Below are positions 1,762-13,365 of a stretch of 13,365 nt of DNA, piece after piece. How positions within the stretch are numbered: position 1 is the stretch's first letter; the number at the start of each line of letters is the position of its first letter. Below the pieces are notes generated by a model. The model ran no database searches. It had not been told where the DNA came from and saw only the letters and a program-made list of their open reading frames with translations. Source of the stretch: a virus (lineage: Duplodnaviria; Heunggongvirae; Uroviricota; Caudoviricetes); the IMG/VR virus record IMGVR_UViG_2606217105_000011. One strand, given 5' to 3'. The translations under genes were made by a program, and so were the position numbers.

Positions 1762-2089
1762 CAATCGTTTGTTAAAAGCGTAGATAACCACTTATTCAAC
1801 AACTTGAAAATAAGGTATTTTACCTGGGTTGTTACAAAAGGATTGCATTGCGTAAACGCTTTTTATTTACAAAAAAATGGGGAAGTGTTACAGCGATTGC
1901 GAAAAGCCTGAAGCGGTTGAATTAAGATAATATAGAAAATCAGATACAGCAAAAATGGCAGATTGATCAGGTGAAGATAAATTGGAGCGGGCGAAGGGAA
2001 TCGAGGAAACCCATAATAACCTGCTGTAAAATAAAGATTTTGTGATCAATCATAGGTAACTGATTACGTGATAATAGAGGATCATTATC

Positions 2090-3310
2090 GTGTCGATCAA
2101 GAGCCAAGCATACTTATTTAAAAGAAAAGATGGGATCTGGATGTTTCAGATTTTTGTTCCTAAATACTTACGTCATCTTTACCCTTATAAGTTGTGGAGA
2201 AAAAGCACATCTACACGAGATCTGAATGAGGCGAGAAGATTCAGAAACCATCTATTATTAGAATGGGAGGAACTAAAGCGAAAACATAATCCTGATAACC
2301 CCGAAAGGAGGTTACAAAAAGCTATTGAATCCTTACATTCAGAGGCAAGGGCCAATAAAAACACGCAAAGAGCCGTAAAACGCGGTTATGCACCGCCTTC
2401 CCTGTGCCTAATACGTGACGAATACGCCGAATGCTACAGAGAGCGTCGTTCATACTCAACACTACAGAAATCAGCAAGGGCCGTTGAGCTATTTTTACAA
2501 AGCATTCAGAAAGATGATATTCATATTGAGAAAATAGGCAGACGGCTTGTAACAGTATTCTTAGATGACCAGAAGCAACGAGGAGCAGCCGATCAATCTC
2601 GTCAAAACTGGCTTACATGCTTAGGATCGCTCTATGAATTTGCTAAACGCCGTTATGACGGAATACCAGACAGTAACCCTTTTCACGGTCATAACCTCGA
2701 AGCACGTCGCACAATCGAGAGTTATCAACCGTTTACACCTGAACAAATGCAAAAGCTACTTGATGCAGCGGAGCCGGAGATCAGAAATATTATTTTAATG
2801 GGCTTGTTTTCAGGATGCAGATTAGACGAACTGGCAAGCCTGAAAAAGTCAGAGGTTGTAACTGTGGAAGGAATACGCTGTTTTTATATCAGCAAGAGTA
2901 AGACTAAAGCAGGGATCAGACACGTTCCGATACATTCGAGACTATCGATTATTGTCGATGAATATTTAAATCATAATTATGGTGAATATTTGTTCCCTCA
3001 CTCGAACAAAGTAAAAAGAATCGACGGCAAGAAAGGCCCGTTCTATTCTCAAGCATTCTCACGTTTACGTCGTAACGTCTTGCCAATCGCTACAGATAGA
3101 CAATGCTTTCACAGCTTGCGCGGGATGTTTATCACTTGTCTTGATCGTGCCGGAGTGCCTGAACAGCGGATCGGAGCCATTACCGGACATACAGAGCAGA
3201 GAGCTAAAACAGAAGCCTTTCGCACCTACTCACAAGGGGCAAGCATTCCAGAATTAGCTGAATATGTAGAATTAGTAAAATATGAATTAAATATTGATTT
3301 TAAGGCGTAA
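2090..3310 (+). CDS. int: Tyrosine-type site-specific recombinase (phage/island integrase), 406 aa, GTG start
   Basis: C-terminal catalytic signature readable in the translation: R in GCRLDELASL, K in the SKSKTKAG hairpin region, H-x-x-R in CFHSLRGMF, H in ITGHTEQ, and the nucleophile Y in FRTYSQG about 36 residues after HxxR. The N-terminal region looks like an arm-type DNA-binding domain. Upstream GAGGAT serves as an SD-like sequence. Confidence 0.85.
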   Translation: MSIKSQAYLFKRKDGIWMFQIFVPKYLRHLYPYKLWRKSTSTRDLNEARRFRNHLLLEWEELKRKHNPDNPERRLQKAIESLHSEARANKNTQRAVKRGYAPPSLCLIRDEYAECYRERRSYSTLQKSARAVELFLQSIQKDDIHIEKIGRRLVTVFLDDQKQRGAADQSRQNWLTCLGSLYEFAKRRYDGIPDSNPFHGHNLEARRTIESYQPFTPEQMQKLLDAAEPEIRNIILMGLFSGCRLDELASLKKSEVVTVEGIRCFYISKSKTKAGIRHVPIHSRLSIIVDEYLNHNYGEYLFPHSNKVKRIDGKKGPFYSQAFSRLRRNVLPIATDRQCFHSLRGMFITCLDRAGVPEQRIGAITGHTEQRAKTEAFRTYSQGASIPELAEYVELVKYELNIDFKA

Positions 3311-3335
3311 AACAACGCCATAAACGTAATAAAAA

Positions 3336-3368
3336 GGCTTCCTTGTAATGGGAGCCTCTTATATGCTT
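3336..3368. terminator. Putative bidirectional intrinsic terminator between convergent int and structural operon
   Basis: Hairpin GGCTTCC(3336..3342)-ttgtaat-GGGAGCC(3350..3356): 7 bp with one G-U wobble on the plus-strand RNA, followed by TCTTATATGCTT. On the minus-strand RNA the stem has one A-C mismatch but is followed by a UUUUUAUUAC tract. Sits in the 108-bp gap between convergent genes. Confidence 0.4.
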
Positions 3369-3417
3369 AATTCCTTACAAGAGTGTTTTAGATTGTGATT
3401 AAACATTCTCTTTATCA

Positions 3418-5259
3418 TTAACTTGGTGCTTGCCCAGACAGAGCCGCCAACGTGAAACTACGTTCAAAATCTTGTTGGATACTTCCCACTTTGTAATCGA
3501 GGTATGATCCAAGCTGACTACCATCAGGGGCGATATTCACATCCACCTTGCTTTCCGGCACGTTTACGACGATGTTCGGTGCATACGTCATAGATGGGGT
3601 AGTGTTCAGATCACGGCTAACGTTCTGTTTCAGGGATTGCACGTTATCAGATGGGCTTGCATAGTTCTGAATTGCAGTTCCGCCAGTCGTTGGCTTGTCT
3701 TCCGTGCCAGGAATAGGATCTAAGCCTAAAGCACTACGACCCCAATCAACCATACCACCTACAAACGAGTCCTTATAATACATACCGGACGAATCAAGGT
3801 TTTCATGCTTGTTCTCTGGGTTGATATTTTGGTATGCAGCAGTAAGCCACGATACAGCACCAGCAAAGGCGCTCATCATTTCAGCCGTTGAGCTTCCAAG
3901 TTCTTTAAACAGAGGATTCAAATCTTTCAACATTTGCGCCCACTCTTCACCAGCTTGAGCATCGAACTCTTCACCAAATCCAGTCATGATAGCTTTCTTA
4001 CTACCTTCCCATGCCATATTCATATTTGCCTGTACCGCTTGCAGACGTTCGGCAGCGTCCAGATCCGCTTGTGTATAGGTGGCATTGGCCTTTTGCATCT
4101 TAACGATGGTCTTGTTTAGCTCTTCACCATTACGACTAAAGGCACCACGGAAATATTGCAAATCATTGCCCAGGTCTTCAAGGATGTGCCCGATTTCTTG
4201 ATCTGATAATCCACGGCGTTCACCTTCTTTCACTACAGCGCCCAGGAAACCTAAAGGATCAGTCTGGAAACCTTTAACCTGTTCAGGTGACCAGCCATAT
4301 TTATTAAGGATGTTATCGACGGCACCATTACCGCCAGCCCAGCGACCTTTCTTAGCGTCCCATTTGGTATTCCCTACGGATTCACCTAAACGTTCCTGAA
4401 CGTCTTTAAGGTTGTCTTGACGTTGGTCTACGGAACTATCAACACCGTGTTCTAAGCCGTACTGGTTGAGAGCTAACAGGGCGTTAGTGTTTACGTTGAC
4501 AGCCTTTGCCTTGCGGTTAGTGTCTGTGATCTTGCTTGCCTGATCGGTTACGGTATTGAATATCGCAGCACCGCCGAAAGTAGCAGCAGTGAGAGCGGCA
4601 CCGCCTACCATTGCACCGACACCAGCGCCCATATGACCACCTTTAAGCTGTTTAGCCATATGTGGGTATTTACCGCCATCAGCCGCCACCTGGCGAGCTT
4701 TTACAGCAGCCGCACGGCGTTCTAACGTGATACGATCACGGATCAGGTGATTCATCTTAGCCTGGCTTATAGCGCCTTTCTCATACGCTGCCGTTTGTGC
4801 TTTGATGTATTGCAATGTTTTGTAGTACTGGGCGCTATCCATACCGTCGCCCATACGCCCTTTTTTGATGCCTTCAAGCTGTCTAAAAGCTTGCTGGCGT
4901 TTAATCTCTGCCTTCTCTGCTATTGTCGCTTTAGCGCGGATCTGTTTATCGGCAGCTATAGCGGCTTTAGCTTTCGCTTTAGCTTCTGCCTTTGCCACCT
5001 TATCAGCGTTCTTCTTGTCCGTTTGAGCTTGCTTGTCTGACGCTTTAGCATCAGCTTTAGCCTGTGTAGCTTTACGAGCCTTTACCAGATCATGAGCATC
5101 GTCTATAGCTTTTTTAGCCTTCTTCCCTTTCATCGTTGGATTGGTTAGGTTTTCCATTTCTTTTTGAAATTTCTTCCCTGCATCGCGTGCTTTCTGCAAT
5201 GATGCAAAATCAACTTTAAATACAACCTTGTTTGTTAAGGTTGAGATGTTTAAATCCAT
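3418..5259 (-). CDS. Phage structural protein, 613 aa: N-terminal Lys/Ala-rich coiled coil, central Gly-rich hydrophobic segment, large C-terminal domain (tape-measure-like, scaffold-like or internal/ejection protein; identity unresolved)
   Basis: ATG at 5259 with AAGGAAAA SD; stop 20 nt after the preceding gene. Composition features: KAKAKAAIAADKQIRAKATIAEKAEIKRQQ repeats, then GGHMGAGVGAMVGGAALTAATFGGAAIF. No motif I can assign to a named family by eye. Confidence 0.5.
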   Translation of the reverse strand: MDLNISTLTNKVVFKVDFASLQKARDAGKKFQKEMENLTNPTMKGKKAKKAIDDAHDLVKARKATQAKADAKASDKQAQTDKKNADKVAKAEAKAKAKAAIAADKQIRAKATIAEKAEIKRQQAFRQLEGIKKGRMGDGMDSAQYYKTLQYIKAQTAAYEKGAISQAKMNHLIRDRITLERRAAAVKARQVAADGGKYPHMAKQLKGGHMGAGVGAMVGGAALTAATFGGAAIFNTVTDQASKITDTNRKAKAVNVNTNALLALNQYGLEHGVDSSVDQRQDNLKDVQERLGESVGNTKWDAKKGRWAGGNGAVDNILNKYGWSPEQVKGFQTDPLGFLGAVVKEGERRGLSDQEIGHILEDLGNDLQYFRGAFSRNGEELNKTIVKMQKANATYTQADLDAAERLQAVQANMNMAWEGSKKAIMTGFGEEFDAQAGEEWAQMLKDLNPLFKELGSSTAEMMSAFAGAVSWLTAAYQNINPENKHENLDSSGMYYKDSFVGGMVDWGRSALGLDPIPGTEDKPTTGGTAIQNYASPSDNVQSLKQNVSRDLNTTPSMTYAPNIVVNVPESKVDVNIAPDGSQLGSYLDYKVGSIQQDFERSFTLAALSGQAPS

Positions 5260-5277
5260 AATATTTTCCTTTACCTT

Positions 5278-5493
5278 TTATTTATTCTGTTTTGATACGT
5301 AATATTGCACTGCTTCCATAGCGGAACAGCCTGTAGCAAAAATTCTTTGACGTACAGCGGTATTAGAGATCCCTAAAAACTTACATACTTGTGAGATATT
5401 TAGAATATCTTCCGGTAAGGTGGAAACAGCTTTCAGGATTTCAACGGGATTGTTATTTTGTGTGTTCATGGTTTTCTCACTTTTATTCGACAT
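5278..5493 (-). CDS. Small HTH DNA-binding protein (excisionase/AlpA-like or regulatory); probable true start at the internal ATG 5469 (MNTQ..., 63 aa)
   Basis: Helix-turn-helix-like segment DILNISQVCKFLGISNTAVRQRI. The internal ATG has a weak GAGAAA SD while the first ATG has none. Located between the capsid gene and the 613-aa gene in the same operon. Confidence 0.45.
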   Translation of the reverse strand: MSNKSEKTMNTQNNNPVEILKAVSTLPEDILNISQVCKFLGISNTAVRQRIFATGCSAMEAVQYYVSKQNK

Positions 5494-5613
5494 TAGAAAA
5501 CAAAAAGGGCAAAGAGATCCGTTACTGTATTTGTTTTACAGGTTAGTTAATCCCTTTTGCCCTTATTGCCTGTTTTATTTCCAGTCGCACAGGAAACGAC
5601 TATTAACGCTTTA

Positions 5614-6642
5614 TTACGCTACTGTGATCTGTACAGTGAAGCCTACGCCGTGGTTTACAACCATCTGGCTATTCTCGGTAACTACGTTTACAGCGTCGTT
5701 ACGTGCTGGGCTAAATGCATAGCTGTAATATTCAGCCGATCCAGAGTTCAGAAGGTCGAACGTTGAAGAAGGAGCGCCGAAAATGTTCTGATAGACGTTA
5801 GAGCCTTTAGCGAACTTCGGAACAGCCACCGCATCAGAAGTCATATGAGCCAGCAGCAGCGGATCGGTAACTTTGATCAGATCAATGTTAGTGCCTGGAA
5901 TAGTGAAGGTAGTCACACCTGGCAGCAGGGAGCGCACACTATAAACGATGTTTGCGTCATCGGTAGGGCTTGCATACTGGAACGCGTTAACCATGCCAGC
6001 ACTGTAACGGATAGCGTTAAATGCAGCAGGTTTACAGAATACAACGATACGCTCTACAGCAGCCGCCTGGCTTTGTGCTTTAGTAATAACGTCTGTATGC
6101 ATCTGATCGAATTGCTGGAACACCATAGAAGGCGTGGTGCTTGATGCGTCGATGGTTGCAGTCAGCGGAACAGCACTAAACAGATCGCCCCACTGAATCA
6201 GCACATCGTCAGTTTTAGGGGTGTAGGTGCGACCACTAAACAGGGAAGCAGCCAGTACGCTTTCTTTAGTACGCTGGAAAGCAATGTGGTGCTTAGCAAC
6301 ATATTCCGCGTAGATATCTGTCAGAGTCTCTTCAACGGTAGCGCCTGGTTTACGTTTGCCTTGAACGTCTTGCGGCTTAATCATATCTTCACGCAGGAAG
6401 TAGGGGATCTCTACTAAAAATTCTTTACCCTGTTCACGTTTAGTCACGTTATGTTCAGAAGAGAAACGAGAGGTTTCTTTGTTGAACAGAGATTCGTTAG
6501 TTTCCACCAGTTGGCTAACAGCCACTTTATGAGAACTCACACCTACCGGATCAGTGAAGTCCAGAGTAGTTAACAGGAAGTTGCGAGAGTCGTGCAGACT
6601 AAACAGCGGAGCCAGATCGACGGATTCATTACCAATAATCAT
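5614..6642 (-). CDS. Major capsid protein, lambda gpE-like family (342 aa)
   Basis: ATG at 6642 with AAAGGAATAAACATA upstream. Length matches lambda gpE (341 aa). By-eye colinear motif resemblance to lambda gpE: DLAPLFSL vs FDPLFLRLF near the N-terminus, IVVFCKPAAFNAI vs NIIVFDPKGWALF, DANIVYSVRS vs DVAIVVYSGQ, and C-terminal GFTVQITVA vs EFVSVQLA. Not search-verified. Confidence 0.6.
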   Translation of the reverse strand: MIIGNESVDLAPLFSLHDSRNFLLTTLDFTDPVGVSSHKVAVSQLVETNESLFNKETSRFSSEHNVTKREQGKEFLVEIPYFLREDMIKPQDVQGKRKPGATVEETLTDIYAEYVAKHHIAFQRTKESVLAASLFSGRTYTPKTDDVLIQWGDLFSAVPLTATIDASSTTPSMVFQQFDQMHTDVITKAQSQAAAVERIVVFCKPAAFNAIRYSAGMVNAFQYASPTDDANIVYSVRSLLPGVTTFTIPGTNIDLIKVTDPLLLAHMTSDAVAVPKFAKGSNVYQNIFGAPSSTFDLLNSGSAEYYSYAFSPARNDAVNVVTENSQMVVNHGVGFTVQITVA

Positions 6643-6660
6643 TATGTTTATTCCTTTATA

Positions 6661-7032
6661 TTAAGATGTGAATACAGTGTTAAAACCAGCCATCTGGAAG
6701 CCTTTAGCAGCCAGAGCAGCAATAGCGGCTTCTTTAATAGCGCCTTCAACATTCAGAGCATCAGACTTGATGCAAACCAGTCCGGCATTGCTACGCAGCA
6801 CGTTAACGGTTTTAGCGTCGCCAGCGGATACCGCATCAGACACAACCACAAGAACATCGCCGCCGCTTACATATTCAGCGCCGTTACTGGTAATCAGATC
6901 GCCGCATTCCACATCAACCGCCAGATCAACGGTAAAAGATTGCACACAACCGAACTCATCAGTTGCATAGCTCACGATATCGGTAAATGATTTGCGAACT
7001 GGAAACAGATCGCTCATATTAATAATAGCCAT
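6661..7032 (-). CDS. Small capsid-associated protein, candidate head decoration/cementing protein (123 aa)
   Basis: Positional only: encoded immediately upstream of the gpE-like capsid gene (as gpD is in lambda), has a decoration-protein size, is Gly/Ala/Val-rich, and has a strong SD (AAGGAAA). I could not see convincing sequence similarity to lambda gpD. Confidence 0.3.
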   Translation of the reverse strand: MAIINMSDLFPVRKSFTDIVSYATDEFGCVQSFTVDLAVDVECGDLITSNGAEYVSGGDVLVVVSDAVSAGDAKTVNVLRSNAGLVCIKSDALNVEGAIKEAAIAALAAKGFQMAGFNTVFTS

Positions 7033-7034
7033 AA

Positions 7035-7250
7035 TTAATAGTTTCCTTTTTTGGATTGTTTGATTTGTTCTGCTTTTGCTTTAATCAGATCCTGCATAGT
7101 AGGCTTCTGTTCATCAGCAGACTTAAAAAGCTTATCACAATGTTTTTTCAATTCTGTTGGAGTGATCCCCAACATATAAGCCGTAGCATTGAATGTTTCA
7201 TCAGTGATAATCAATTCTTCGTTACCATTCTTTAGAATGAGATTTTGCAT
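7035..7250 (-). CDS. Hypothetical small protein (71 aa), first gene of the capsid operon
   Basis: ATG at 7250 with AAAGGTAAAG upstream; its stop abuts the next gene's SD/start (7032). No recognisable motif. Confidence 0.4.
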   Translation of the reverse strand: MQNLILKNGNEELIITDETFNATAYMLGITPTELKKHCDKLFKSADEQKPTMQDLIKAKAEQIKQSKKGNY

Positions 7251-7290
7251 TGTTGCTTTACCTTTTTTCTAACGTTCTTGTTTAGTCCTG

Positions 7291-7322
7291 ATAAAATAAA
7301 ACCGGAAGGGGAAAGCTTCCGG
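7291..7322 (-). terminator. Intrinsic terminator (minus-strand orientation)
   Basis: Perfect 7-bp stem CCGGAAG(7302..7308)/CTTCCGG(7316..7322) with a 7-nt loop. On the minus-strand RNA it is followed directly by UUUUAUUUUAU (reverse complement of 7291..7301). On the plus strand the U-tract is poor. Confidence 0.6.
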
Positions 7323-7444
7323 CTTTATGGATACAAAACATATGAAGGATGCGATAGAAGTGTTACTAAATCGTATTTATATGCACTTAAAGAGGGTAGG
7401 ACATATAAGAATAAGATTGCTTATTGTTATATACCCTTGAGGGG

Positions 7445-7520
7445 TGAATAACAGGCTTACAGGGAGTAGGCGCTTAGGAGGTCGCCCCCTTTGGAGAGGA
7501 ATCTATAAACCTGTTATTCG
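7445..7520. repeat. 10-bp perfect inverted repeat (GAATAACAGG ... CCTGTTATTC) flanking a 54-bp GC-rich core; candidate RNA stem-loop or protein-binding/recombination site
   Basis: Seen: 7446..7455 is the exact reverse complement of 7510..7519. The enclosed sequence contains a GGCG...CGCC sub-hairpin and an AGGAGG motif. A 10-bp perfect inverted repeat this close together is unlikely by chance. Confidence 0.45.
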
Positions 7521-7786
7521 TGCGATGGCTAATCGCTGTCTTTCTCAATGTGGATGCATCGATCAGACTTTCAGGAATCACCTATTAACTTTCAAACCTT
7601 TTGGATTCTCATTTTAATAGGAGGCGGTGCCGAGATGATTTCGGGGATCATCCACGCATTTCGCGTTCTAAGATTGGCACCTTAATAAACACCAACAAAC
7701 AAAAAACTTATTTAGCTTTGGGCTTAATAGAAACTGTTGTCAAGAAACAGATATACACCGTTATTTGTTTATACGGGGTTTATAGA

Positions 7787-7807
7787 CACTGTAAACAGTG
7801 TTTTTAG
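7787..7807 (+). terminator. Putative intrinsic terminator (plus-strand orientation)
   Basis: ACACTG(7787..7792)-TAAA-CAGTGT(7797..7802) hairpin followed by TTTTT on the plus strand. Implies a plus-strand transcript ending here inside the ORF-poor region. Confidence 0.4.
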
Positions 7808-7825
7808 AAAGTGTTTCATGCTTCA

Positions 7826-7865
7826 CAGTTGGTTAAAAAGATGAGGGGCCAAGTCCTTAGCCCCT
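7826..7865 (-). terminator. Putative intrinsic terminator (minus-strand orientation) downstream of the small-gene operon
   Basis: Stem AGGGGC(7844..7849)/GCCCCT(7860..7865) with a 10-nt loop. On the minus-strand RNA it is followed by CUCAUCUUUUUAAC. About 265 nt downstream of the last gene of the operon (ends 8130). Confidence 0.35.
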
Positions 7866-8129
7866 GCATTCTTAAGACACAATATGATAAAGCAATAAGG
7901 AAAATAAAATGAAACTATTAACGAGGGAAACAATTTCTAAAAATCACTGTAAAGGGAAAGCGAGGCAGGTTAGATAGGGCGCGACCCCTTGAGGTCTACC
8001 CCGCTTTCGTGTAGGATTAGAATCGGTAGAAGGTTTAACGCCAGCTAACACCTGTTTTCTATTCTGCCCCCTATATTTCTTATTATATAACATTTCTGTT
8101 AGAAAGTCAATAGGTAAATCAAAGTTTTT

Positions 8130-8342
8130 TCAGTTCTTTTCGTTCGTTAACTGCCAATCACCAAATACACAATTACCATCTAAAACAATTGTTTGTTCGT
8201 TACCGTTATCATCGGTTACGTGCATCAGGCGGGTGTAATTGTCGAGATTGCCAGTGTAGATCTTGCCTACTGTGAAGCAATTACCCGCTTTGCCTTCTTC
8301 TGTGAGTGCCAGGAGGCGCACACGTTTAGTTTTTACTGTCAT
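8130..8342 (-). CDS. Hypothetical small protein (70 aa)
   Basis: Start at 8342 overlaps the stop of the upstream gene (translational coupling). Last gene of a minus-strand operon. Confidence 0.45.
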   Translation of the reverse strand: MTVKTKRVRLLALTEEGKAGNCFTVGKIYTGNLDNYTRLMHVTDDNGNEQTIVLDGNCVFGDWQLTNEKN

Positions 8343-8650
8343 TAGTTGTTAGCCTTATCGATTAGTTGTGCTATGAGTGGTTGCAAGTCTGCTACCGCTT
8401 GTTGCATGATTTCAGTGGTGTCATTGATCACGGTAATCAGGTTATTCAGATCATCAGCTTCAATCTGTGCACCTTCGGATTGTTTGCACGCTTCAATAAG
8501 CAATTGCAGTGCTTCCCGCGTCGATTCCAGATTAATAACCGCCTGTGTGATGGTCAGTTCGCTTGGAAAGGTCAGAGCCGCATTAACTGCTTTCTGTAAA
8601 GAAATAATAAGATCGTACATCTGAAGCGTTACGTTGTGTGTAGTGCTCAT
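8342..8650 (-). CDS. Hypothetical small acidic, predicted all-helical protein (102 aa)
   Basis: Start at 8650 overlaps the stop of the upstream gene. Strong excess of D/E over K/R in the translation. Confidence 0.5.
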   Translation of the reverse strand: MSTTHNVTLQMYDLIISLQKAVNAALTFPSELTITQAVINLESTREALQLLIEACKQSEGAQIEADDLNNLITVINDTTEIMQQAVADLQPLIAQLIDKANN

Positions 8651-8871
8651 TATGCCACTTCCTCTAATTGTTCTAATTGTTGTTGTGCTTCGCGTGCTTT
8701 CTTCATAGCGATAGTGAGCGGAATTTTATAAGTTGCAATGCTGTCTATAACGTCATCCAGAATTGCCAGATCGTTCTCTTCCTTTGCTCGTTCGATAATA
8801 TCTATGAAGCATTCTGAAAGAAGCTTGAGATCGTGAAAAGTGGTTGTCTCTAAAATTGCTTTGTTAATCAT
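8650..8871 (-). CDS. Hypothetical small acidic helical protein (73 aa)
   Basis: ATG at 8871 with AAAAGGAAAA SD; stop overlaps the next gene's start at 8650. Confidence 0.5.
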   Translation of the reverse strand: MINKAILETTTFHDLKLLSECFIDIIERAKEENDLAILDDVIDSIATYKIPLTIAMKKAREAQQQLEQLEEVA

Positions 8872-8912
8872 TTTATTTTCCTTTTGTTAAGGGTTATATT
8901 CATCTAATGCTG

Positions 8913-9293
8913 TTAATCGTCAATGTTTACTTTATCAAGTAGAAGTAAGTCTGTTTCTCGAACTCCTGCATATTGCAGGCTATTAAGCGCCATATACCCC
9001 CTAAAATGGGCCATGTCTGAAAATCCCAAACATTGCCATCTTTTAAGAAGACTACTATCAATGATTGTTGTTTTGCGTGGGCGTGGATTGAAGTAAACGC
9101 CAGGCATACTTTGAATGATTGATAATTCTGTGTCTGTTAATTCTGGGCTTGGTTCTTCAAGTATGAAGATCAATTCTTCGCCTGGTTCCGCATCATGCTC
9201 ATAGTTATATTTACGAGGATTGTTTAACGCATACTGATCACATGCTTCGCCAATAGTTGTTATTACGTTTTTCTTACCTTTTTTCTTGCTCAT
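8913..9293 (-). CDS. Hypothetical protein (126 aa), Lys-rich N-terminus
   Basis: ATG at 9293 with GAAGGGGAAG SD. No recognisable motif. Confidence 0.5.
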   Translation of the reverse strand: MSKKKGKKNVITTIGEACDQYALNNPRKYNYEHDAEPGEELIFILEEPSPELTDTELSIIQSMPGVYFNPRPRKTTIIDSSLLKRWQCLGFSDMAHFRGYMALNSLQYAGVRETDLLLLDKVNIDD

Positions 9294-9414
9294 TGCTTCC
9301 CCTTCGTTTTGTTTTTCTTGTTGCAGTGTTAAAAAAGGAAGCGATCATAAATACTAAGAAAAATATTAAGCTTTCCATTGTTTCACCCTTCAAGATGTTT
9401 GATAGTTGTTTGTT

Positions 9415-9633
9415 TTAAGCTACAGAGTCGATTCTGAATGCTTTCATATGAGTTTTGGTATACTGCAATAATCCTTGTTTACTTAGGCTATCGAGAAGAG
9501 CATATAAAAATTGCTCACCTACCACACCGGAAAACTCAGAATCAAACAGAATCATTCCCGTTCTTTCCCGTAAATATTGCAGAAAGGTTTCTTGTGAAAA
9601 TTCGCTATCGAATATGGTCACAGCGCCACCCAC
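9415..9633 (-). CDS. Hypothetical ORF (72 aa from a GTG start, no SD); may be the C-terminal part of a split or frameshifted gene
   Basis: Frame is open from 9651 with a GTG at 9633 and no convincing SD. It overlaps the end of the upstream ORF by 16 nt with a 34-nt two-frame-open window (9618..9651). Confidence 0.25.
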   Translation of the reverse strand: MGGAVTIFDSEFSQETFLQYLRERTGMILFDSEFSGVVGEQFLYALLDSLSKQGLLQYTKTHMKAFRIDSVA

Positions 9634-9875
9634 AATTCGAAAGGGCTTATCTCAAGCAAACGGAACGTCTGACTATTCACAGCCTCATACTTAATTACCC
9701 CAAAATGGCTCAGGTGATTTAACCAGTGCTGTGTGTGTTCTTTACTATGAGGTAACTCCTGCCAGCTGATAATCGCGGGTAGCTCATAATTGCTATCAGC
9801 AAGCTGTTTTGCCAGTGTGTAGCCGCTTTCTGTAATTTCGAATGTTCGTTTGTTTAATGTCAGGTTGTATTTCAT
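9618..9875 (-). CDS. Hypothetical protein (85 aa); possibly the N-terminal part of a frameshifted gene continued by 9415..9633
   Basis: ATG at 9875 with AAGGAGAA SD. Its frame ends at 9618 while the downstream ORF frame is already open from 9651. Confidence 0.45.
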   Translation of the reverse strand: MKYNLTLNKRTFEITESGYTLAKQLADSNYELPAIISWQELPHSKEHTQHWLNHLSHFGVIKYEAVNSQTFRLLEISPFELWVAL

Positions 9876-9887
9876 TTTTTATTCTCC

Positions 9888-10553
9888 TTAAAATGGTATT
9901 GAGTCATAGATTTCACTTTCTTTTCTCAGGGCTATCATCAGTGCATTAAAAGCATCATCTTCAAGAATTATCCTCTTCGAGGTCAGTGCACGTTTTATAA
10001 AATTTTCTGTTTCTTCTTGCATAGGCTTTTGGCTGTCTATGGAAATAAGCCATGTAAAAAGATCAGATTGTTCCGTGATTTCTGCCTGTGTTTCCTGCTC
10101 AATAGAGTGTGTCGCTTCTAACGGTTCCTGTGTTTCAGGTGCAGGCTGTTCTACGTTTACAGAGGTTTTTACGTCTTCCGGTGGTGTGATGTGTGCATCT
10201 GTAAAGGGTAATGCTTTATAGAGTGATGTTTGCCCGTCCCGTGCCTCTACAGAAAGAACACCCATATCAATAAACATATTTATAATATTACGCACCTGAC
10301 GATCACTAACCATTCCAATATTAGCTAATGTTTTTTGATTGGCGTAACATTCTTGCCCTTGTTCATTGAACCCAGCTACGTAACTGTAGATTTCAACGGC
10401 TGGAAGTGTCGCGGTGTATTCCTTACCTGACGGTGAGAACCACTTTTTAAACATCTTCAGCCATTGTTCAACTACTACATATGTTTGTTTACTATCTTTC
10501 TTATTGAGGCATTGCGCTTTTGCTTCGGCAATTGTTTTGGTGTTTTGGTTCAT
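9888..10553 (-). CDS. Winged-helix/HTH DNA-binding protein with acidic linker and C-terminal helical domain (221 aa); candidate replication initiator/replisome organiser or regulator
   Basis: ATG at 10553 with a perfect AAGGAGG SD 6 nt upstream. HTH-like segment NIGMVSDRQVRNIINMFIDMGVL; acidic E/Q/T-rich linker; C-terminal helical region. Functional call is an inference from architecture. Confidence 0.5.
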   Translation of the reverse strand: MNQNTKTIAEAKAQCLNKKDSKQTYVVVEQWLKMFKKWFSPSGKEYTATLPAVEIYSYVAGFNEQGQECYANQKTLANIGMVSDRQVRNIINMFIDMGVLSVEARDGQTSLYKALPFTDAHITPPEDVKTSVNVEQPAPETQEPLEATHSIEQETQAEITEQSDLFTWLISIDSQKPMQEETENFIKRALTSKRIILEDDAFNALMIALRKESEIYDSIPF

Positions 10554-10677
10554 TTAGTTCCTCCTTTGTAAGGACTGTAATTAGTAATTCATTAACAAGT
10601 TTTGGAATTGATTTCCCTTCTGCCTTTGCACGATTTAACAACGCGTTATAAGTTGCAGAATCAAAATTAATATTCAT
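10501..10677 (-). CDS. Ribbon-helix-helix (CopG/Arc/MetJ-like) small DNA-binding protein, 58 aa; not in the supplied ORF track
   Basis: Hand-translated from the minus strand: MNINFDSATYNALLNRAKAEGKSIPKLVNELLITVLTKEELNEPKHQNNCRSKSAMPQ. ATG at 10677 with AGGAGAAGGAG upstream. Beta-strand/helix/G-K-S turn/helix pattern typical of RHH proteins (compare CopG ...MAREMGLSKSAMISVAL...). Its 3' end overlaps the start of the 221-aa gene by 53 nt in another frame. Confidence 0.55.
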   Translation of the reverse strand: MNINFDSATYNALLNRAKAEGKSIPKLVNELLITVLTKEELNEPKHQNNCRSKSAMPQ

Positions 10678-10700
10678 TTGGTTTTCTCCTTCTCCTGTTA

Positions 10701-10883
10701 TTATTCTTTCTCTGCTTCTGCCTTACGCAGTTCATCAATAATTTTTAGTGCATCGTCAAAGCATTTTTCACGCTCTGGATAACCACAGCGCCGCGCTGTG
10801 TTCCTGTTCATCCTTACTTGATGTCGTGTTAGCTCACCTTTTTTAAATGCCTCTACGACGTGTTCCGGTGTATACCATTTCAT
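10701..10883 (-). CDS. Hypothetical small basic protein (60 aa, MKWYTPEHVV...), first gene of the small-gene operon
   Basis: ATG at 10883 with AAGGAG 7 nt upstream. The longer track ORF (to 10916) starts at a GTG with no SD. Confidence 0.45.
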   Translation of the reverse strand: MKWYTPEHVVEAFKKGELTRHQVRMNRNTARRCGYPEREKCFDDALKIIDELRKAEAEKE

Positions 10884-11867
10884 AAAAAACTCCTTATTTA
10901 GATAAAAGAAAAACACACCTTGCAGCCTGACGGCTCAAAGTGCAGTGTTCTGTGATTTGATTATTTAGATGGAGAGAGATGTTTCTCCCCTCCCTACTTA
11001 CAATACTACATAACGGCGGCTTTGTCAACCCTCTTTTATAAAAAATCTGATCATTTTCAATTTCTTATAATTTTTCTTAGCTTTTTGTGCTGCATACTCT
11101 GGTACAATTCTTCCCTGTTGTCTAAAACGCTCTCAATCGCACTCTGACGGGGTTTTGATAAAAACAATACATTCCCTTATGTAGAGGTTGTTTATCTCGT
11201 CGGAGGCTTATTTAAGGGGCTTATTTTTGATTTATCAGATGATGGAAAGATGGTGGATAGATAAACTCTGATTTCAGACATCTTATAAAATACCTGCAAA
11301 GTTCTCAGAAGCTCTGTAACGAGCTAATCTATTACCGCTAAGGTGTTTCCCTTACATTACCCTGTTTAGCTCGCCTACGGCTTGATTTAAGCGGTAGAAT
11401 CTTATTTAACCTTCAACTACAAAAACCATTCTTTCTTTTTTGTTGTTGGTTGTTTTGTCATGTTATGCGTTAGCATCCCCAAAGGGTAACGCGACACTAA
11501 CAACCATTCGCTTACGCTCAGGTTATTGCACAAGTAAATTTCAATCGTTAGATGGTAGTTAGTTAATTATCGTTCTGCGCACAGCGCAAGACTATTAGCC
11601 ATACGCAAGCCGTAGGCTATTTGCACATAGTAGATTACATATTCGTTGTGAGCGGAAAGCGAACATAGATCAGCTAACTACTAACAAAAAACAAAAAACA
11701 AAAACTATCTGTTATGACAAGCATCAGTCTAACTTGTGCAAGGTTCTGGCGAATGCCAATAGATTAAGGGATAGTCGAAGACTCCCTAACGGGTATCCCT
11801 ATAATTATTCTTTAAAAGATAAAAGAATTTATAAAAGATAGTTTAATTGTAGTTTAATTATAGTATT

Positions 11868-11919
11868 GTAGGAACTCATTTCCTGGGTAGGTAGGAACTC
11901 ATTTCCTGGGTAGGTAGGG
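11868..11919. repeat. Tandem direct repeat, 2 copies of a 23-bp unit GTAGGAACTCATTTCCTGGGTAG plus a partial third copy; each unit contains the palindrome AGGAA-N5-TTCCT
   Basis: Seen: 11868..11890 and 11891..11913 are identical, followed by GTAGGG. Internal inverted repeat AGGAA(11870..11874)/TTCCT(11880..11884). Lies in a 1.2-kb ORF-free region. Iteron/operator-like. Confidence 0.7.
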
Positions 11920-12181
11920 AAACCGCACTATACACTGGTAAGTGTCTTGCACAGAAAAAGGTATCAAAAATGTCTAAAGCCCCTTTAGATAAAAATGATA
12001 CCTTTATACATGCGCTAATAGCGCGCATAACAATAACCTACTAACAACTAACTAACTAAAAAGTAAGAAGATGTTGTTATGATTAGTGTATCGCTCAACG
12101 CTCACATCTATCTCTGATCTATAAATTGGTAACTGTCTAACAACAACAAACTGATCCTACCCACGTAATATGGACACAGGC

Positions 12182-13048
12182 CTAAGCGAGGTTCTGGTTT
12201 TCAAATTGTTCCGGACTGAGGCCGCCACACCAACTGTGCCGCCGCCACCGATTGTAATCACATTCGATATAATTAAACACCGTTGCCCGCATTATTTCCC
12301 GGCTGATAAAGTGTTCTCCATGGATACATTCCACTTTCAGCGAATGAAAGAAGCTTTCCACGCAGGCATTATCGTAGCAGCAACCTTTTGCGCTCATACT
12401 TCCACGCAGATTATGCCGCTTCAGTTGCGCCTGATAATCTGCTGAACAGTACTGGCCTCCACGGTCCGTGTGAACGATAACGTTCCGGGGCCTCTTACGC
12501 CGCCACAGCGCCATCTGCAGGGCATCGCAGGCCAGTTGCGCCGTCATGCGTGGCGACATTGACCAGCCAATAACGGCACGTGACCACAGGTCAATGACCA
12601 CTGCCAGATACAGCCAGCCTTCATCTGTACGTAAGTACGTGATGTCTCCTGCCCACTTCTGGTTCGGGCCACTGGCGTAAAAATCCTGCTCCAACAGATT
12701 TTCTGACACAGGCAGGCCGTGTGCGCGGTAGCTGACCGGGCTGAACTTCCGGGAGGCCTTTGCCCTCAGTCCCTGACGGCGCAGGCTTGCCGCCACGGTT
12801 TTTACGTTAAAGGGGTAACCCTGAGCACGCAGTTCATCCGTCAGGCGTGGGGCACCGTAACGCTGTTTTGACCGGGTAAAAGCCGCGAGGACAACGCTGT
12901 CGCAGTGTTGGCGGAACTGCTGACGCGTGCTTATCCTTGTCCGCCGCTGACACCACGTATACCAGCCGCTGCGGGCCACCCGGAGCACGCGGCACATTGC
13001 TTTGATGCTGAACTCAGCCTGATGTTTTTCAATAAAGACATACTTCAT
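12182..13048 (-). CDS. insF: IS3 transposase OrfB (InsF-like, DDE)
   Basis: Translation identical to the 318..1184 ORF. Confidence 0.92.
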
Positions 13049-13344
13049 TTCAGGCGCTTCGCGAAGTATGTCGCGGCCTTTTGGAGGATAGCCAGCTCTT
13101 CATCCCGTTCTGCCAGCTGGCGTTTGAGACGTGCAATCTCGGTAGACATCTCCAGTTCACGTTCAGAAGACGTCTGCTGATTTTGCTGTTTACTGCGCCA
13201 GTTGTAGAGCTGTGATTCATACAGGCTGAGTTCACGGGCTGCGGCAGTAACACCGATGCGTTCAGCAAGCTTCAGGGCTTCACTGCGAAATTCAGGCGAA
13301 TGCTGTTTACGGGGTTTTTTACTGGTTGATACTGTTTTTGTCAT
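13045..13344 (-). CDS. insE: IS3 transposase OrfA (InsE-like)
   Basis: Translation identical to copy A orfA; ATG start placed at the mirrored position of 22. Confidence 0.92.
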
Positions 13345-13365
13345 GTGAGTCACCTCTGACTGAGA

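Follow-up and report, generated by a model that had tools for sequence, protein, structure and literature searches.

The integrative satellite PLE of Vibrio cholerae has a virulent myovirus as its helper (Barth et al. 2019, PMC7145576; Boyd and Seed 2024). It carries a 2.7-kb non-coding region with four repeat families and semi-palindromic origin repeats that are bound by its own RepA (PMC7145576), and a short mimic of the packaging site of the helper adjoins this origin (bioRxiv 10.1101/2024.04.22.590561). Here, we analyze a 13,365-nucleotide stretch of viral DNA (IMG/VR record IMGVR_UViG_2606217105_000011; the whole stretch is referred to as the window), in which the 1268 nt at positions 10884-12151 form the left part of an island's long non-coding control region, which is cut by a copy of the insertion sequence IS3. 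The host element looks like a tRNA-integrated, phage-satellite-like island of Escherichia coli. Several other described systems are relevant to the comparison. The lambda origin consists of approximately 20-bp tandem, dyad-symmetric repeats next to an A+T-rich stretch and is bound by the N-terminal domain of the O protein, and lambdoid phages possess matched O-protein and repeat specificities. Satellites such as the Staphylococcus aureus pathogenicity islands (SaPI), the chromosomal islands inducible by phages (PICI), and P4 (ori/crr) encode initiators with cognate short repeats flanking an A+T-rich stretch, again with matched specificity; in these systems the initiator is a primase fused to a helicase (Pri-Rep; alpha in P4), and the origin is located directly beside or inside the initiator gene. 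DnaA boxes, an integration host factor (IHF) site, or both are usual in plasmid iteron origins but not in lambda. Finally, the CI RNA of P4 and the c4 RNA of P1 are untranslated immunity leaders with internally complementary repeats.

The segment at 11804-11927 is probably the replication origin of the island. We read it in this way because it combines the signature of a cognate protein-site pair with an A+T-rich neighbor and with homology of the corresponding protein to replication initiators; this and all other functional statements below come from the comparison of related loci that are not independent of one another. The left part of the segment is a 64-bp stretch of 85-88% A+T (11804-11867) that, by its composition, is a candidate DNA-unwinding element. 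It is followed on the + strand by type 1 origin repeats, or iterons (11868-11927), which comprise two exact 23-bp copies of GTAGGAACTCATTTCCTGGGTAG and then a degenerate third. Each GTAGGAACTCATTTCCTGGGTAG copy contains the interrupted palindrome AGGAA-N5-TTCCT, and within the window the palindrome AGGAACTCATTTCCT is limited to two occurrences, one at 11870 and one at 11893. The original prediction for this DNA, which took the gene-free region for a candidate origin, attachment site, or large non-coding RNA, had already pointed to tandem 23-bp repeats, and Tandem Repeats Finder recovered them at 11868-11918 with a period of 23, 2.2 copies, and a 100% match. Five repeat types occur in the island family, each composed of an interrupted palindrome and a short tail: type 1, AGGAA-N5-TTCCT, which is that of the window; type 2, TCACAGTGA…; type 3, TATCA-N4-TGATA; type 4, ACAG-N4-CTGT; and type 5, GTAAC-N5-GTTAC. 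The spacing of types 1-4 is 22-24 bp, or about two helical turns. Among the 37 non-identical relatives with recognizable repeats, the 60 nt to the left of the first repeat were 83-93% A+T in every case.

The protein likely to act at these repeats is encoded about 1.3 kb to their left, at 9888-10553 on the - strand. This 221-aa protein, identified by its PHROG hits, has an N-terminal winged-helix part that we designate variant a. It matched seven PHROG families at E = 6.8e-6 to 4e-3, all of them replication-initiation, O-like, or DnaD-like (helicase-loader-like) families and three of them labeled "replication initiation O-like." A winged helix of the HTH_36 type was present in all four variants scanned at full length (a-d); against the Pfam HTH_36 cut-off of 25 bits, the window protein scored 22.3 bits and variant d, the only variant above it, scored 32 bits. 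The best sequence matches in the PDB were generic winged-helix regulators and the partition protein TubR. Across the family, the initiator has a mosaic make-up, its N-terminal DNA-binding part coming in five unrelated forms (a to e), and at all 37 loci the first array beside the A+T-rich stretch matched the N-terminal variant (a with type 1, b with type 2, c with type 4, d with type 3, and e with type 5; permutation p <= 1e-5). The protein part and the repeats are separated by approximately 1.3-1.9 kb of DNA that recombines, and variants a, b, c, and e are each present on both of the middle-segment backbones described below. Thus, on at least four occasions the N-terminal part and the array moved jointly but the DNA separating them did not. 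As judged from these alignments, such joint exchange is the signature of a cognate protein-site pair. The origin named in the original prediction is therefore supported by the match between initiator variant and repeat type at 37 of 37 loci and by the A+T-rich stretch that adjoins the array in all of them.

The other end of the protein suggests how replication might proceed from there. The initiator C-terminus (window 9888-9908) ends in …IYDSIPF, and other variants end in …DFDIPF. The C-terminal tip of the E. coli single-stranded DNA-binding protein (SSB), …DDDIPF, docks many replication and repair proteins; by analogy, the initiator C-terminus, which resembles the SSB tail, may recruit parts of the host or helper replisome. 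We infer a sequence of events in which the lambda-O-like initiator of the island would bind the repeats as dimers via its N-terminal winged helix, binding would open the adjoining A+T-rich DNA, and the SSB-tail-like C-terminus would then recruit host or helper-phage replication proteins.

Relatives can carry more than one array. At L003 13200-13560, as in other relatives, the cognate array is followed downstream by a stack of non-cognate ones whose order is invariably 2-1-3-4-2-5, and the arrays that precede the cognate type in this order are absent. Repeated A+T-rich spacers (tatagtataaagaatattatt) stand before several arrays and could mediate deletions. Mimicry of a helper origin by the repeats was considered and set aside: the L003 arrays were without counterpart in phage records, and a search of IMG/VR for the exact pattern returned only copies of the same island.

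Several observations weigh against an origin at 11804-11927. No DnaA boxes or IHF sites were found within one mismatch of the consensus. The window copy has only two intact repeats, in contrast to the three matching copies in other carriers of initiator variant a, and approximately 900 nt of the region, comprising the middle segment and the right flank, are unaccounted for by origin function; what is well explained is the origin core, about one tenth of the region. The homology of the protein to known initiators is weak, given an HTH_36 score below the cut-off and generic PDB matches, and the 37 loci are mutually related, so that the permutation p overstates their independence. Furthermore, the same co-variation would be expected for a repressor or a centromere-binding protein with its operator array. 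The repeats could accordingly be an operator, a centromere, or an array for a packaging protein, with the helix-turn-helix protein acting as a repressor, a partition protein, or a packaging-specificity protein. The co-variation of protein variant and repeat type speaks for cognate binding and not for replication as such, the winged-helix regulators and TubR among the PDB matches would suit a role of this kind, and a stack of several non-cognate arrays downstream, as in the relatives, is unusual for origins. However, all PHROG matches of the protein are to replication initiators or helicase-loader-like families, the cognate array always adjoins a stretch of 83-93% A+T, and neither a partition ATPase gene nor a terminase gene was found in the island. 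In addition, the DNA upstream of the gene for the protein itself contains no cognate palindrome, and the SSB-tail-like motif at the protein end would, by analogy, fit replisome recruitment. We therefore consider an operator, centromere, or packaging array quite unlikely and retain the origin as the preferred reading of 11804-11927. Two further explanations concern the region as a whole. A decayed protein-coding gene would fit its gene-like length and its one 50-aa open reading frame (ORF) (11876-12028 on the - strand, the only ORF of at least 50 aa within 10917-12151), but that ORF is not kept in relatives. The original prediction had offered an intact gene in homologous elements as its own refutation test, and no relative has a gene there, which excludes a pseudogene on that test. 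Among the listed best-matching records of 366 and 747 E. coli genomes, no feature or pseudogene was annotated under the match, with two exceptions: a "hypothetical protein" that falls outside the window part, and a plasmid match with an IS3 transposase/pseudoknot. Frequent indels of 1, 2, 4, 7, 16, 29, 51, 100, and 175 nt among 17 aligned variants preserve no frame, and conservation is arranged as motifs and repeat cassettes. A decayed gene is thus extremely improbable, and by these alignments the region is a conserved non-coding feature of the family. No more credible is the attachment (att) site that had also been proposed here. The region does lie at the sequenced island end opposite the integrase, where the second attachment site of the element might be sought, but the 22-bp integrase-proximal att repeat TGGAGCGGGCGAAGGGAATCGA (1983-2004, + strand) has this single exact match in the window. 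In L001, an uninterrupted relative, a 13.7-kb element lies between the 22-bp direct repeat beside the integrase and the same 22 bp at the 3' end of tRNA-Gly. The att partner in intact relatives is this tRNA 3' end (L001 18742, compared with L001 15235 for the end of the region), 3.5 kb past the IS3 cut point, and accessory genes lie between the two.

The remaining alternative, a structured RNA, concerns the middle segment of the region (11190-11800, + strand), which an alignment of 17 variants and their predicted folds show to be a mosaic, rich in hairpins and in CTAAC. It holds a duplicated GTTTAGCTCGCC module (11190-11230 and 11363-11398), the universally conserved CTGCGCACAGCGCA (11574-11587), and the conserved GTGAGCGGAA (11648-11657). 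Two unrelated sequence types of this segment exist, I (that of the window) and II, and both retain CTGCGCACAGCGCA and GTGAGCGGAA; a metagenome scan between two conserved motifs yielded family members of type I or II and one recombinant, the remainder being chance-like matches. The main product of the region could be a long structured non-coding RNA running rightward from about 11185, which would be compatible with an origin at 11804-11927. It might be a regulatory or immunity RNA of the P4 or P1 type, whose repeats are complementary to one another, or one that runs into the origin and serves as its pre-primer or activator. Both middle types fold better than shuffled sequences, the + strand having a small advantage (z of -3.75 for + against -3.17 for - in the window, and of -5.15 against -3.66 in L003). 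Both hairpins named in the original prediction, at 11467-11492 and 11575-11587, are present, and the stem of the former is kept through two compensatory double changes (GCGTTA/TAACGC versus GTGCTA/TAGCAC). Although otherwise unrelated, both middle types retain the motifs CTGCGCACAGCG and GTGAGCGGAA, and in the minimum-energy fold of each type these two motifs are paired with each other through G-U pairs, which are possible on the + strand only. The recurrence of CTAAC, which had also been noted before, holds up as an enrichment limited to the + strand (9 occurrences versus 1.5 expected, with 0 of 1000 shuffles reaching 9; 3 on the - strand). T/G-rich tracts (11429-11455 and 11548-11567) are complementary to three CTAAC/A-rich tracts, and no gene follows for at least 1.5 kb downstream in any relative. 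Against this stands the absence of any Rfam family: Rfam 15 gave no match in the window at the gathering score, and even at E <= 1 the intact region returned only the tRNA. The promoter and terminator scan found no canonical promoter or terminator for an RNA in the region, the candidate promoter described below failing the -10 rule. The consensus fold of the 17 type I variants had similar energies on either strand and few compensatory pairs (9 of 199 on + and 5 of 182 on -), with no strand preference, and among 22 type II variants substitutions were not depleted in stems (odds ratio 0.74, p = 0.77). Moreover, the long-range pairings are lost in relatives that lack one arm, and palindromes are equally expected for protein-binding DNA. 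Of the large non-coding RNA originally envisaged, then, one hairpin with compensatory changes and a strand-biased motif stand, whereas an Rfam family, a strand preference, and a stem/loop bias do not, and we judge such an RNA unlikely to be the main product of the region. An array of three ACAAAAA units had been counted as an origin feature as well; Tandem Repeats Finder reports it as (AACAAAA)x3.1 at 11683-11704, and it is not conserved in relatives.

The middle segment may be a loading site, may be transcribed toward the origin, or may encode a regulatory RNA. The middle type tracks the initiator C-terminus at 35 of 35 loci, type I occurring with …YDS[IL]PF (19 of 19) and type II with …DFD[IL]PF (16 of 16). 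The two backbones are largely clonal, with few recombinants in the intervening 60-aa gene and in conserved block A (described below); the link between middle type and C-terminus is therefore suggestive, not proven.

The island that carries this region contains the att repeat, an integrase gene (2090-3310), a 613-aa protein that matches tape-measure PHROGs (phrog_16051, E = 2e-67), a capsid protein of the Phage_cap_E type, small leftward genes, and the 221-aa initiator, with neither portal nor terminase among its genes. The only phage relatives of the capsid protein, at approximately 25% identity, are the capsids of virulent myoviruses of 145-155 kb, namely those of the phi92, rV5, and Phapecoctavirus type together with their relatives from Pseudomonas and Klebsiella. 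We infer from the sequence that the island depends on a helper, and phi92/rV5-like virulent myoviruses are the likely helpers because of this capsid homology and a copy of phi92 terminal-repeat DNA in related islands (discussed below). Two capsid-gene types with 19% identity occupy the same position in related islands (window 5614-6642 and L002 7043-8074), and type B was found only alongside the type I middle segment. The family is common in E. coli, and its members are tRNA-integrated, satellite-like, and 11-14 kb long (window 1983-12151; L001 5064-18763); some encode a "phage baseplate protein," and they carry variable defense-type cargo (GmrSD, resolvase). All 10 annotated relatives have the same gene order, namely the initiator, a 60-aa gene, a gene-free stretch of 1.7-2.9 kb, variable cargo (resolvase, GmrSD, and others), and the tRNA or another flank. 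The window region matched 366 of 5426 complete E. coli genomes (megablast), and the full L001 region matched 747 of 5426 (blastn). A scan of one genome per species with the 60-aa protein gave four loci, all in Escherichia or mislabeled bins, and consequently there are no distant relatives for a covariation analysis. Comparison of the window region with 50,697 phage records showed no DNA similarity, and comparison with plasmids returned only two E. coli records, both of which carry the same island. No description of the island family was found in the literature searched, and one may exist elsewhere.

These family-wide features allow a more elaborate proposal, which we advance tentatively and regard as rather doubtful as a whole: a two-key, re-programmable origin in an undescribed, common E. 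coli satellite family of virulent phi92/rV5-like phages. The first key would be a fixed-order library of five arrays (2-1-3-4-2-5), from which deletion between the repeated A+T-rich spacers would bring the initiator-matching array next to the unwinding element. The second key would be the middle segment, serving as a cis element (an RNA or a loading site) matched to the C-terminal domain of the initiator and its SSB-tail-like tip. Under this proposal, the stacked non-cognate arrays could let related satellites cross-activate or titrate each other's initiators.

Pairwise comparison identified four blocks that are conserved across the family, with positions counted from the start of the 60-aa gene: block A (1-380, window 10884-11263); block B (675-713, window 11558-11596); block C (970-1041, window 11853-11924), which is common to part of the family only; and block D (1621-1837), which is beyond the IS3 junction and missing from the window. 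To the left of block A, the 60-aa gene (10701-10883, - strand) is the first of a leftward operon that continues with a small gene, the initiator gene, and further genes; it is annotated in all relatives and is 73-90% identical among them. Between this gene and the initiator, the ORF list contains a small ORF (10501-10677, - strand; …ATYNALLNRAKAEGKSIPKLVNELL…) whose predicted product resembles ribbon-helix-helix proteins in sequence and might regulate the divergent promoter region. An autoregulatory operator upstream of the initiator gene was also sought and rejected: a near-match at 10603-10617 lies inside this small ORF, and no variant-specific palindrome occurs there in any variant. The left 150-300 nt of the non-coding region are plausibly promoter and leader. 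The 5' untranslated region and a sigma-70-like promoter of the leftward operon occupy 10884-11028 on the - strand (promoter scan, 10 of 12 matches), with the -35 element TTGACA at 11028-11023, a 17-bp spacer, and the -10 element TATTGT at 11005-11000; the -35 element is invariant in the aligned relatives. The most conserved part of the left block is a 31-bp box, TTTTGATAAAAACAATACATTCCCTTATGTA (11153-11183, + strand), which is invariant or nearly so in the alignments. By its sequence it is a candidate rightward promoter (TTGATA-17-TATGTA) or operator; as a promoter, it does not pass the scan's strict -10 rule. Direct repeats of CTAAAACGC (window 11120-11150; L003 12235-12262), present in two copies in several relatives, lie between the leftward and the rightward promoter candidate and are a possible operator.

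Only the closest relatives share the right flank (11928-12151), which contains a 49-bp near-perfect palindrome at 11957-12005, which folds 8.3 standard deviations better than shuffles (z = -8.3), and a second palindrome, ATGCGC-N7-GCGCAT, at 12010-12028. Both occur in the closest relatives only, and the segment (11957-12028) is missing from other subfamilies. The last non-coding DNA before the IS3 junction (12036-12151, + strand) holds CTAAC runs and the motif TCGCT-N2-3-CGCTCA (12091-12104). Further copies of this motif are at 11508-11520 (+) and 11649-11662 (-), with two more beyond the junction in L001, and Tandem Repeats Finder reported ACTA/TAACAAC runs at 12028-12059.

Beyond the junction, at 1.7-3 kb into the region, 24 of 45 relative copies (duplicates included) carry a 30-74-nt copy of phi92 DNA; copies of 46-74 nt are 91-96% identical to phi92 positions ~290-363 (for example, L003 14546-14591). 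The phi92 sequence spans position 343, the annotated right boundary of a 343-bp direct terminal repeat. This is the only significant phage similarity of the region, it involves the same phage group as the capsid protein, and by analogy with the packaging-site mimics of other satellites it most likely serves as a signal for packaging or cutting. Neither the window nor its closest intact relative, L001, yielded this sequence, and the right part of the L001 non-coding region gave no meaningful match to phages. Block D includes a 23-codon ORF (L001 15640-15715; MKSSFKVQFLLSSLLHYHQQSLM) that is intact in L001 and L002; it is probably non-coding, because it is frameshifted in L003. Repeated CCTGTGTAAT motifs occur in block D and in the DNA after it.

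The original prediction had placed the gene-free region at 10917-12151. The gene-free stretch is real, and the absence of 60-codon ORFs is borne out for 10884-12151, but its left boundary should be moved and its right end is not a natural one. The neighboring 60-aa gene has its start codon, an ATG preceded by an AGGAG ribosome-binding site, at 10883, in agreement with the annotation of relatives, and the non-coding stretch therefore begins at 10884. The right end, 12151, is the junction with an inverted IS3 copy (12152-13365, - strand) that interrupts the non-coding region and within which the window ends. This copy was recognized by IS3-type ORFs of 102 and 288 aa and by the annotation of relatives, which assigns it to the IS3 family, and relatives that lack the insertion continue through the junction position without a break. 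The gene-free stretch of L001 (13968-16307) is 2340 nt, about 1.1 kb longer than that of the window, which indicates that IS3 cut the window copy after nt 1268. Both window ends lie 1214 bp into inverted IS3 copies (1-1214 and 12152-13365), and the window looks like a short-read assembly piece broken in repeats. The exact pair of IS3 insertions was absent from the complete genomes compared, the best match having 98% coverage in seven pieces. An ORF-free stretch is in itself unremarkable in DNA of 38% G+C; the amount of non-coding DNA, by contrast, is unusual for so compact a mobile element. Inside the island there is another ORF-free gap, at 7251-8129, of about 880 bp. It is unannotated in relatives too, where it measures 350-990 bp, and it showed no phage match and no notable repeats. 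A tRNA/tmRNA scan of the window found none.

In sum, this analysis explains a conspicuous piece of unannotated DNA, related sequence to which is present in about one seventh of complete E. coli genomes (747/5426). The island family seems to be for E. coli what the PLE satellites are for Vibrio. Should this be confirmed, E. coli would offer a tractable model of virulent-phage satellites, together with five initiator/origin pairs that are naturally orthogonal and a case in which origin specificity is exchanged as two separate DNA patches. The unusual aspects are the modular initiator/repeat specificities, the non-cognate arrays stacked in a fixed order, and an island family that is apparently undescribed. 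The window itself is more modest, being an IS3-interrupted copy in which the right half of the control region is missing.

The island can be compared with each of the known systems. Its T/G-rich tracts complementary to three CTAAC/A-rich tracts in the window recall the P4 CI RNA and P1 c4, but there is no Rfam match, no downstream genes are available for control, and the complementary arms are not kept together. Like SaPI/PICI and P4, the island has a satellite-encoded initiator with cognate repeats beside an A+T-rich stretch; in contrast, the small winged-helix initiator of the island lacks helicase and primase domains, and the island origin sits within non-coding DNA of much greater length. 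With the lambda origin and O protein, the island shares dyad-symmetric tandem repeats, the A+T-rich stretch, an O-like winged-helix initiator, and matched specificity. However, the lambda origin lies inside the O gene, whereas that of the island is 1.3 kb away in non-coding DNA; lambda has four repeats, whereas the window has two intact ones; the island has no recognizable P-like helicase-loader gene; and the C-terminal part of its initiator is unrelated to that of O and has an SSB-tail-like end. The island origin thus resembles a lambda-O-like origin in mechanism and is not a strict member of that family. The likeness to PLE is one of layout: the island has a gene-free region of 1.7-2.9 kb with at least five repeat families (five iteron-like types, to which other motif families are added) and origin repeats that match its own initiator, and many relatives carry a copy of the phi92 terminal-repeat boundary. 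Unlike in PLE, the initiator is O-like/HTH_36 with no RepA_N match, there is no sequence relationship, and the host is Escherichia with presumed phi92/rV5-like helpers instead of Vibrio with ICP1. The island also brings genes of its own for capsid, tape-measure-like, and baseplate proteins, and it has five apparently interchangeable initiator/repeat specificities with non-cognate arrays in a fixed order. The PLE non-coding region is therefore the closest analogue of the island's control region in overall organization, as distinct from a member of the same family.

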